Shown piece after piece: positions 25,426-26,256 of a stretch of DNA of 64,000 nucleotides. Both the position numbers and the translations under genes were made by a program. Every line of letters starts with the position of its first letter. The first letter of the stretch is position 1. The notes under the pieces are model-generated. The model worked only from the letters and a program-made list of their open reading frames with translations. It was not told where the DNA came from and did no database searches. Source of the DNA: Candidatus Omnitrophota bacterium (lineage in GTDB: Bacteria > Omnitrophota > Gorgyraeia > Zapsychrales > Fredricksoniimonadaceae); contig JAUSEK010000023.1 in NCBI GenBank assembly GCA_030650275.1, positions 199,729 to 263,728 of the forward strand, read 5' to 3'.

Positions 25426-26256
25426 ATGCCTCAAATTTCTAAACAAGTCGCTGTTTTTCAAGGCAAGCAAATTCGCAGAGTTTGGGATGACGCCCAAGAA
25501 AGATGGTATTTTTCTGTGGTGGATATTGTGGAGACCCTCACGGGGAGTTCGATCCCTAAAAGGTATTGGTCTGATCTTAAAAGAAAGCTTGGCAGTGAAG
25601 GAAGTCAGGTGTACGAGAAAATCGTACACCTGAAATTTCTGGCTTCTGACGGCAAGAAATATTCAAGCGATGCCGCGGATACTGAAACCATGTTTCGTAT
25701 CATTCAATCAATACCATCTCCAAACGCCGAGCCGTTTAAATTATGGCTGGCGCGGGTCGGGTATGAACGGGTTGAAGAATACTCAGACCCTGAATTAACC
25801 ATACAACGCGCGATCCAGACATATTTGAAAAAAGGATATTCGCAAGACTGGATCAATATGCGTCTTAAAAGCATAGAGATCCGTAAATTATTAACGGATG
25901 AATGGGTGAAACGAGGCGCTAAAACTAATGATGAGTTTGCTCAATTGACGGACGATATTACCTTTGCCTGGGCCGGGATGACAACCAAACAATACAAAGA
26001 TTTTAAAGAGTTAATGAAAGAAAATCTGCGTGATAACATGACAAACTTGGAACTGGTCCTGAATATGCTGGCCGAAGCAAGCACGACGGAAATTTCCCAG
26101 GTCAAACATCCGCAAACATTCGGCCAAAATCGAACGATCGCCAAACAGGGCGGGGCAGTGGCTGGTAAAGCCCGAAAAGCGATCGAGGCCAAGACAGGGA
26201 AAAAAGTTATCACCAAGGACAGTTATATTAAGCAGCGGCAAAGTATTGGTATTTAG
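25426..26256 (+). CDS. Bro-N domain protein (phage antirepressor-like)
   Basis: 'FQGKQIRRVWDDAQERWYFSVVDIVETLTGS...AEPFKLWLARVG' fits the Bro-N/KilA-N-type fold. Sits immediately downstream of paralog 1. Confidence 0.55.
   Translation: MPQISKQVAVFQGKQIRRVWDDAQERWYFSVVDIVETLTGSSIPKRYWSDLKRKLGSEGSQVYEKIVHLKFLASDGKKYSSDAADTETMFRIIQSIPSPNAEPFKLWLARVGYERVEEYSDPELTIQRAIQTYLKKGYSQDWINMRLKSIEIRKLLTDEWVKRGAKTNDEFAQLTDDITFAWAGMTTKQYKDFKELMKENLRDNMTNLELVLNMLAEASTTEISQVKHPQTFGQNRTIAKQGGAVAGKARKAIEAKTGKKVITKDSYIKQRQSIGI

Follow-up and report, generated by a model that had tools for sequence, protein, structure and literature searches.

Two KilA-N-type genes at paralog 3′ ends in an Omnitrophota genome belong to the candidate-defence families PDC-S13 and PDC-S05

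The stretch of DNA analysed here (the window; 64,000 nucleotides, positions 199,729 to 263,728 of contig JAUSEK010000023.1 in the Candidatus Omnitrophota assembly GCA_030650275.1) carries two genes for proteins with a KilA-N-like N-domain, each directly 3′ of a locus of a multi-copy paralog family. The first, a Bro-N gene at 25426-26256 (276 amino acids), starts 104 bp after the stop codon of paralog 1. The second, an ORF6N gene at 61117-61656 (179 amino acids), starts 279 bp after a remnant open reading frame (ORF) of the same family at 60467-60838. Both genes, the paralogs and the remnant are on the + strand, as are the blocks, C-modules, promoter-like sites and in-gene palindromes of the two genes described below. 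A first-pass annotation had placed the two genes here, and the measured ORFs and spacings bear this out. On the strength of full-length profile matches, the genes are members of two widespread one-gene candidate-defence families, PDC-S13 and PDC-S05. They are probably not phage antirepressors or local regulators. With moderate confidence, we propose that these defence-candidate genes were trapped at paralog 3′ ends by recombination between conserved C-terminal modules (C-modules), and that they hitch-hike in a hot spot with no regulatory partnership to the paralogs.

The domain names given to the two proteins hold in profile searches. The product of 25426-26256 matches Pfam Bro-N (PF02498) at E = 5.1e-8 (33.9 bits; cut-off 25.6), and that of 61117-61656 matches the whole of Pfam ORF6N (PF10543) with its residues 21-105 at E = 1.7e-33 (115.2 bits; threshold 27.8). 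Both are also matched over their full length by PADLOC models, the Bro-N protein by PDC-S13 model PDLC04920 (6.9e-124, residues 5-272 of 276) and the ORF6N protein by PDC-S05 model PDLC04856 (4.7e-60, residues 11-170 of 179). NCBIfam contained no match for either protein and a PDB sequence search gave no usable match. In fold searches with AlphaFold2 (AF2) models, the two N-domains shared as neighbours the baculovirus Orf22 N-domain, Mbp1/APSES, the DdrC N-domain and Dachshund, with DdrC at the top. The earlier grouping with the KilA-N/APSES superfamily holds. Beyond the N-domain, the Bro-N protein has a helical C-domain in common with Escherichia coli DinD, and the ORF6N protein continues as a long C-terminal helix. 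Neither model contains a recombinase or nuclease fold, and neither protein has a Pfam match to ANT/KilAC.

Relatives of both proteins are overwhelmingly cellular. For each family, more than 8000 cellular relatives at 60-97% identity are present in the protein database, from Omnitrophota, Patescibacteria, Peregrinibacteria, Nanoarchaeota, Margulisbacteria, Deltaproteobacteria and Spirochaetes (the candidate phyla radiation (CPR) and DPANN included), and in both families most come from lineages without the paralog family. A CPR relative of 72% identity carries the source name 'DNA-damage-inducible protein d'. Among 50,697 phage records, 4 and 5 contain a relative, all of them short faecal 'Bacteriophage sp.' contigs. 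In IMG/VR the Bro-N protein has 7 relatives, none above 48% identity, and the ORF6N protein has 148, none above 59%. Compared with its nearest copies, the Bro-N gene differs synonymously in 31 codons and non-synonymously in 9, and the ORF6N gene in 22 and 13, which indicates purifying selection on both. The label 'phage antirepressor-type', under which the genes were first described, is therefore misleading given the lack of ANT/KilAC, the few phage records and the full-length PDC-S13 and PDC-S05 matches. PDC (phage defence candidate) families, made up of one or several genes, were proposed from the embedding of their members inside known defence operons (10.1101/2024.01.29.577857), and most are untested (PMC12988326). 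PDC-S13 and PDC-S05 are reported to be among the commonest candidate defence genes of prokaryotes (PMC12988326), and one PDC-S05 representative, which bears a RhuM domain, made T7 and T5 plate about 1000-fold less well on E. coli (10.1101/2024.09.26.614923, a preprint).

The paralogs beside which the genes lie are large secreted-type proteins with variable cargo. Paralog 1 (20658-25322, 1554 amino acids) consists of a signal peptide, a conserved N-module, an enolase-like plus phosphoglycerate-mutase cargo and a C-module. Paralog 2 (30840-33440, 866 amino acids) is 48% identical to it across the first ~390 residues and shares a short C-terminal motif. It has no KilA-N-type gene downstream and serves as an internal negative control; a 127-amino-acid ORF without a Pfam match lies 3′ of it. 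The N-module gave 1328 matches, with all named relatives labelled Omnitrophota/Omnitrophica, and identifies a multi-copy family with hypervariable enzyme cargo. After the cargo comes the C-module, with the consensus 'GGIDLN...FDPAM...PVIINI.P...PLLGL...LA.V*' (asterisks are stop codons). The family is apparently confined to Omnitrophota, is often arranged in tandem, and includes proteins of up to ~3700 amino acids (loci L009-L087). Across these loci, too, a signal peptide and a conserved N-module precede an unrelated enzyme cargo and a conserved C-module follows it, and the cargo ranges from enolase-like plus phosphoglycerate mutase to receiver domain, NUDIX and methyltransferase. The paralogs have no PADLOC match.

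The recurring pairing had been read as a sign of a dedicated regulator, or of a mobility link, for the paralog loci. We surveyed 79 loci of other Omnitrophota genomes (1.08 Mb, 94 paralog ORFs), including 57 complete paralogs with at least 1 kb of 3′ sequence. None of the 57 is followed by a Bro-N or ORF6N gene, and synteny is not conserved. Two of the 79 loci do carry such a gene, in both cases directly upstream of a paralog start. In L015 a Bro-N gene separates tadA from the paralog and is immediately preceded by what looks like a tRNA-Ser gene; in L070 an ORF6N gene separates a KamA-like gene from the paralog. Both of these genes, the sole examples in the survey, abut a paralog, for which the permutation probability is 0.0625 for a random gene and about 0.004 for both. 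The window pattern, too, exceeds chance: by our own post hoc arithmetic, occupation of two of the three window 3′ ends has a chance of about 1e-5 at the survey density.

The nearest relatives of the window genes are found in unrelated neighbourhoods. The closest Bro-N relative (97% amino acid identity, L002) lies among MFS, thioredoxin, panD and def genes, and an 82% relative (L004) lies between a DUF1016/PDC-S02 gene and ksgA. ORF6N relatives of 63-72% identity in L256 and L257, from other Omnitrophota metagenome-assembled genomes, and in L008 stand among unrelated genes, and paralog modules are absent there. Each window gene contains a palindrome, described below, and no second copy of either was found in the window at three mismatches or fewer, hence none near a paralog promoter. 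Thus, the KilA-N-type genes are not conserved partners of the paralogs, and the dedicated-regulator reading is unsupported because there is neither conserved synteny nor an operator-like palindrome copy by the paralog promoters.

Two of these other loci have features of their own. In L004 (6684-8683, GCA_016212005.1), the DUF1016 nuclease gene matching PDC-S02 is directly upstream of the PDC-S13 gene, and the two form an islet of defence candidates with pdxA on one side and ksgA on the other. In L008 (4902-15424), a TPS/ShlB two-partner-secretion pair is followed by two ORF6N genes 1.8 kb apart and then by a MazG-like gene, a Dcm-type methylase and Vsr.

The Bro-N gene is the only gene of a block (25317-26312; guanine plus cytosine (GC) content 0.44, compared with 0.54 for the window) that is common to L002, L003, L090 and L088. 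In blastn, window positions 25317-26301 align to these contigs at 94.4-95.4% identity over 981-985 bp with the same end points; the shared sequence begins at the paralog stop codon, and the sequence outside it is unrelated. Within the block, the stop codon of the paralog tail is followed by a promoter-like site, the Bro-N gene, a decayed orphan C-module and the right half of a repetitive extragenic palindromic (REP) hairpin. The left border is the intact C-module and tail of paralog 1 ('GGIDFN...PMLLGLRKEEQESRPPQLASV*', 25089-25322; profile match at 25089-25298, E = 2e-28). The promoter-like site at 25331-25359 (sigma-70-like, TGGACT-17-TATAGT with TG) is a consensus match only and is kept in L002 and L088. 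Between this site and the start codon lies an imperfect dyad, AATTAGTCGG-TTCCCC-GCCGATTATT at 25366-25392, which is also kept in L002 and L088 and could be an operator.

C-module sequences flank the Bro-N gene as direct repeats. In the window, the repeat copies are at 25167-25185 and 26253-26271. The second copy lies within the decayed orphan and REP half-hairpin 3′ of the gene ('GPAM..QLLLGLEPP', 26253-26312), which matches the C-module profile at E = 0.011 (18 of 1000 shuffles) and is homologous to the repeat copy DR-R of L002. There, a 53-bp direct repeat, 87% identical, flanks the Bro-N gene and both of its copies read as paralog tails: 'PLVGLEPPKREEEGLPGV*' matches the C-module profile at E = 3e-4 and 'PLLGLEPSKR*EERLAGV*' (DR-R) at E = 6e-4, with none of 1000 shuffles doing so. 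A second Bro-N cassette subtype lies directly after an intact C-module in L089 (81% amino acid identity) and L097 (71%), and L089 has a further decayed C-module 3′ of the gene, with a 58-bp repeat of 96.6% identity. Just upstream of its Bro-N cassette, L002 also contains a second duplicated gene 3′ end (3100-3185 and 3940-4000) around two small minus-strand genes. This segment differs in the related contig L088, which suggests a local hot spot.

The ORF6N block (60779-61658, GC content 0.43) is common to L006 and L007, to which the window is 91.8% identical over 881 bp. It runs from the last 20 bp of a paralog through a spacer, an orphan C-module and a promoter-like site to the ORF6N gene, and ends 2 bp past the stop codon. 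The next gene differs, being RecO in the window and a BioB-like radical-SAM gene in L006. The orphan, a partial C-module 'NAPGFVPVIINIQPMTDLREFLGLNKEDGPPQSSHG*' at 60855-60968 between the remnant and the ORF6N gene, matches the C-module profile at E = 1.8e-8 in a six-frame search and at 8e-13 as a single test. An orphan of the form 'NAPGFVPVIINIQPMTDLR.FLGLNKED..*' stands between the paralog end and the ORF6N gene in both the window and L006. The promoter-like site at 60956-60983 (TTCACA-16-TATTAT with TG) is again sigma-70-like by consensus match only. In L006 the block is preceded by a full-length paralog. In the window it is preceded by the remnant (60467-60838), which is 52% identical to amino acids 25-99 of paralog 1 and consists of N-module codons 1 to ~105 followed, out of frame, by the final 7 codons of a paralog tail. 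Comparison of this junction with L006 identifies the remnant as an L006-type paralog after an internal deletion at the microhomology TCCCTC.

Orphan C-modules are therefore present beside KilA-N-type genes in the window, L002, L089, L097 and L006. The mobility link raised in the first-pass annotation thus gains substance: orphan C-modules bracket or precede both window genes, and the arrangement recurs in L006/L007, L089, L097 and the L002 group. The absence of an integrase or phage genes nearby was also confirmed by profile searches of the window proteins, which found none near either gene, no prophage and housekeeping flanks. Searches around both genes found no terminal inverted repeats, att-like repeats or adjacent tRNAs; the only tRNAs of the window are at 8620 and 50394, and a tmRNA is at 10301. 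With a single gene in each shared block, no terminal inverted repeats and no adjacent tRNA, the blocks do not resemble an integrative element or transposon.

Flanking duplications also occur at PDC-S13 genes of other lineages. After de-duplication, 66 distinct PDC-S13 loci were available. Direct repeats of at least 30 bp flank the gene in 6 of the 66, compared with 0 of 259 shifted control positions (Fisher p = 6e-5), and repeats of at least 20 bp flank 10 of the 66, compared with 2 of 259. In L157 (9952-9984 / 10838-10870), the duplicated 33 bp are the ribosome-binding site and first 10 codons of the downstream aminotransferase gene. The duplication in L138 (1195-1261 / 2113-2179) covers 67-90 bp of the next gene's 5′ end, and that in L154 (2870-2913 / 3827-3870) covers the upstream gene's 3′ end. 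A further repeat flanks the L151 gene (9901-9975 / 10875-10953). Flanking repeats were rejected as a general feature of ORF6N genes, as only 5 of 88 ORF6N loci on viral contigs have them and most are 16-20 bp.

Both window genes contain a palindrome of ~29 bp inside the coding region of the KilA-N-like domain. For the Bro-N gene it is TCAGGTGTACGA-GAAAA-TCGTACACCTGA (25605-25633, codons 60-70), and in the ORF6N gene ACTTGATATCGC-GATTT-GCGATATCAAGT (61337-61365, codons 74-84). Perfect hairpins with arms of at least 12 bp number four in the whole window and none in shuffles, and each KilA-N-type gene contains one of them; by prediction the hairpins are stable (z-scores from -4.4 to -6). Pairing is conserved across each family. 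For PDC-S13, 86.5% of cells are paired among 37 distinct homologues, compared with 63% in shuffles (0 of 500) and 26-33% when the partner is slid, and 10 of the 12 pairs have changed on both sides. For PDC-S05, 33 of 46 distinct sequences were kept (at least 8 of 12 pairs in register) and 23 of those were aligned. Here 89.5% of cells are paired, compared with 72% in shuffles (0 of 500), and 11 of 12 pairs have changed on both sides (shuffle mean 5.8, 0 of 500).

The compensatory changes keep the pairing across homologues while they alter the peptide. In PDC-S13, for instance, the peptide VYEKIVH goes with the arms GTACGA/TCGTAC, LSEKIGQ with GTCCGA/TCGGAC, VVTKCNQ with GGTTACA/TGTAACC, VVTKCDQ with GGTCACA/TGTGACC and IVTKCHE with CGTGACA/TGTCACG. 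At pair 19-29, synonymous changes in the third position of a Val codon covary with the first position of a codon for Asn, Asp or His, and none of the 37 homologues is unpaired. E. coli dinD has an inverted repeat with 15-nt arms at the same codons (L168, E. coli K-12, 3934-3965). A hairpin in the sense-strand mRNA is unsupported, with 13 G.U cells against 26 A.C cells; a dyad in double-stranded DNA and a bottom-strand hairpin both fit. Rfam contains no family that matches the region searched around the Bro-N block (25300-26400). A literature search of limited coverage found nothing specific on an in-gene palindrome in KilA-N genes.

The other two perfect hairpins, with 12-bp arms, are at 20880-20907 and 31056-31083, in frame and at the same N-module point of paralogs 1 and 2. 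Their peptides are 'VETRHASSL' and 'VETQHAASL'. The two hairpins differ by compensatory changes (GAGG..CCTC vs GCAG..CTGC) and look like REP-type in-frame inserts. A separate REP-like hairpin family, GGATTCCCGACAnAAGCATTCGGGAATGACA, has copies in the window at 21370-21402, 33887-33975 and 5596-5628, in L002 at 5110-5144 and in L088 at 2943-2981. One REP-like copy is within the coding sequence of paralog 1 ('SSGFPTKTFGNDSH'), and the contigs with a shared Bro-N cassette carry this element too.

The covarying palindrome and the flanking duplications are family-wide features, and we found no description of either. We tentatively suggest, with less than even confidence, that PDC-S13 (dinD included) and PDC-S05 share a nucleic-acid element new to the literature, the ~29-bp dyad or hairpin in the coding sequence of their DNA-binding domain, whose compensatory substitutions take precedence over protein sequence, and that it acts either as a cognate cis element, that is, a self-tag or autoregulator similar to the aba element of BstA, or as a structure-specific recombination site. 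Possible roles are thus a cognate site of aba type, an operator for autoregulation and a site for structure-specific recombination. If the last were true, it would explain both the movement of single genes and the frequent target duplications of 30-90 bp.

Based on these observations, we propose a model for how the KilA-N-type genes came to lie beside the paralogs. Both families would consist of anti-phage or DNA-transaction candidates, which spread horizontally one gene at a time, each gene with a promoter-like site of its own. The conserved C-module of the multi-copy paralog family may provide a recombination substrate, or anchor, for them. Incoming or rearranging DNA would recombine within the C-module, and the displaced copy would stay behind as an orphan and decay. 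The same process may later have removed almost the entire paralog at the third locus. Because the C-module would be the recombination substrate, the pairing of gene and paralog would be a side effect of locus dynamics. If BstA, DinD and DdrC are taken as analogues, the protein itself may bind phage or damaged DNA and block replication or recombination.

Several points weigh against this model. The limits of the blocks and the orphan C-modules are observed, but the recombination route is inferred from these end products. The right orphan of the Bro-N gene is short, its significance is modest (E = 0.011) and its reading frame was chosen post hoc. L002 and L088 are one locus in related strains by blastn, and the cassette is present at 94% identity or more in two independent contexts only; moreover, L002 may be a decayed paralog locus instead of a new insertion. 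As to defence, no known defence system lies beside either gene, the neighbours being the paralog, SPOR, LpoB, RecO and an ExeA-like ATPase. The evidence for defence covers one RhuM-type PDC-S05 member only, and for PDC-S13 defence is a candidate status. Lastly, the metagenome contigs carry no taxonomy, which limits any count of the Omnitrophota copies that abut paralogs.

Four other explanations can be set against capture at paralog ends. If the KilA-N-type genes were dedicated transcription regulators of the paralog loci, one would point to their DNA-binding fold, to their position at two of the three paralog loci and to the recurrence of adjacency in L006, L089, L097, L015 and L070. We consider this very unlikely, since a downstream copy is absent from all 57 paralogs elsewhere and only 2 of the 79 loci have any copy, paralog 2 has none, the closest relatives are in unrelated contexts and both families abound in phyla without the paralogs. 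Additionally, the window shows no palindrome copy near a paralog promoter, and each gene has its own promoter-like site and a GC content unlike that of its surroundings. It is equally improbable that the genes are remnants of degraded prophages, with true antirepressors left behind. The names BRO in Pfam and 'anti-repressor' in PHROG (phrog_4792), and the relatives on IMG/VR contigs, would agree with such an origin. However, no phage, integrase or att/tRNA features lie within ~20 kb, the shared blocks are just 0.9-1.0 kb, and ANT/KilAC is missing. Relatives occur in only 4-5 of the 50,697 phage records, viral relatives are at most 48-59% identical compared with 70-97% for cellular ones, and both ORFs are intact and under purifying selection.

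The two remaining explanations take up the mobility and the possible function of the genes. The genes might be autonomous one-gene mobile elements that insert duplicatively at gene ends, possibly by means of the hairpin or their own DNA-binding protein, with the paralog tail as one target of many. The repeats of at least 30 bp at 6 of 66 PDC-S13 loci but at none of 259 controls, and their derivation from the target in L157, L138 and L154, argue for this, and the geometry of the covarying hairpin (~11-bp arms, 7-bp centre) resembles recombinase core sites. Against it, neither protein model has a recombinase or nuclease fold, duplications of a variable 33-90 bp match no known transposition chemistry, and the hairpin is inside the gene rather than at the block ends. 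ORF6N loci are seldom flanked by repeats (the 5 of 88, mostly short), and the majority of loci have none. We regard this explanation as rather unlikely. Somewhat less credible is that the genes are modulators of host DNA repair or recombination, accessories similar to DinD or DdrC, and not defence genes. E. coli DinD belongs to the same PADLOC family and is mentioned, in a passage of PMC4849656 that cites Uranga 2011, as removing RecA filaments; the best structural match, DdrC, binds DNA breaks (PMC11347143); and the ORF6N gene adjoins recO. These links are offset by the patchy distribution, horizontal mobility and low GC content of the genes, by the position of relatives beside other PDC genes (e.g. 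PDC-S02 in L004), by the weak pairwise similarity to DinD (E = 0.057) and by the loss of the recO adjacency in L006.

The genes on the flanks are of ordinary cellular character. The nearest relatives of the searched window proteins are from Omnitrophota, in keeping with the source label. Flanking genes include those for a DnaQ-like exonuclease, a Ddl-like ligase, SPOR, LpoB, a receiver protein and phosphoenolpyruvate carboxykinase, as well as aroB, an M50 peptidase, RecO, SNase and a Hel308-like helicase. At 10301-12119, the tmRNA gene lies by smpB and is followed by a low-GC (0.42) stretch. This contains an ORF that resembles a lipoprotein gene (10807-11307) and an apparent toxin-antitoxin pair of HigB/HigA type (11518-11832 and 11829-12119).

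In sum, at this locus the attractive idea of a dedicated regulator is replaced by a testable picture, in which the conserved 3′ module of the paralogs would serve as an anchor for recombination, where foreign one-gene cassettes are caught and orphan ends stay behind. The window genes are new members of known candidate-defence families, and the palindrome and duplications raise the interest of an otherwise ordinary pair. A palindrome conserved in structure within PDC-S13 and PDC-S05 coding sequence, and also in dinD of E. coli K-12, offers a concrete handle on DNA recognition, self-regulation and movement. The flanking target duplications hint at an undescribed spread of single genes in streamlined genomes (CPR, DPANN and Omnitrophota).

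Comparison with known systems places the window genes near several characterized proteins. The Bro-N protein is closest to DinD (b3645). DinD matches a sister model, PDLC04919 (2.4e-121), and is thus itself a PDC-S13 protein; its C-domain (residues 122-250) matches PDLC04920, the model of the window protein, at 2.2e-16. The two are similar in size (274-276 amino acids), and the dinD palindrome is at the same codons. However, the N-domain of DinD is nearer the ORF6N type, whereas that of the window protein is of Bro-N type, and pairwise BLASTP between them is weak. The window gene is not embedded in a defence operon. The ORF6N gene resembles PDC-S05 in being a single gene with a KilA-N-like N-domain and a full-length match to the family model. 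It differs in that the representative that protects E. coli has a Virulence_RhuM domain, which the 179-amino-acid window protein lacks, and in lying outside any restriction-modification, BREX or Hma system.

BstA is a prophage KilA-N abortive-infection protein whose cognate DNA element for self-immunity, aba, lies inside its own locus (PMC8585504). The likeness consists of a KilA-N-type protein with a short DNA element within its own gene, and of an element that varies between variants to give 'cognate' pairs. By this analogy, we hypothesize that the in-gene palindrome may have an aba-like role. In contrast to the window elements, which are 29-bp dyads at codons 60-84 of genes that are not on prophages, aba is 63 bp long, extends across the start codon and bears direct CCCGCC repeats at its ends. 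The likeness to DdrC of Deinococcus radiodurans (PDB 7qvb) comes from the predicted model only, at 17% sequence identity, and DdrC is a chromosomal, lineage-restricted protein that senses breaks and compacts DNA.

Phage antirepressors and baculovirus BRO proteins (Bro-N, KilA-N, ANT) share the N-terminal fold and the Pfam families with the window proteins. They differ in that the window proteins have no ANT/KilAC C-domain, no phage context and close relatives that are overwhelmingly cellular.

The arrangement of the locus as a whole recalls other systems. Rhs and CdiA polymorphic-toxin loci contain displaced 'orphan' 3′ modules, and T4-type phages contain ORF cassettes flanked by promoter early stem-loops (PeSLs). 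The window loci show no evident logic of toxin and immunity, the paralog cargo and the trapped genes have no relation to each other, and the mechanism is deduced. The similarities to Rhs, CdiA and PeSL systems lie in a multi-copy family whose ends are conserved and whose body varies, in orphan 3′ ends downstream, and in genes trapped between repeats.

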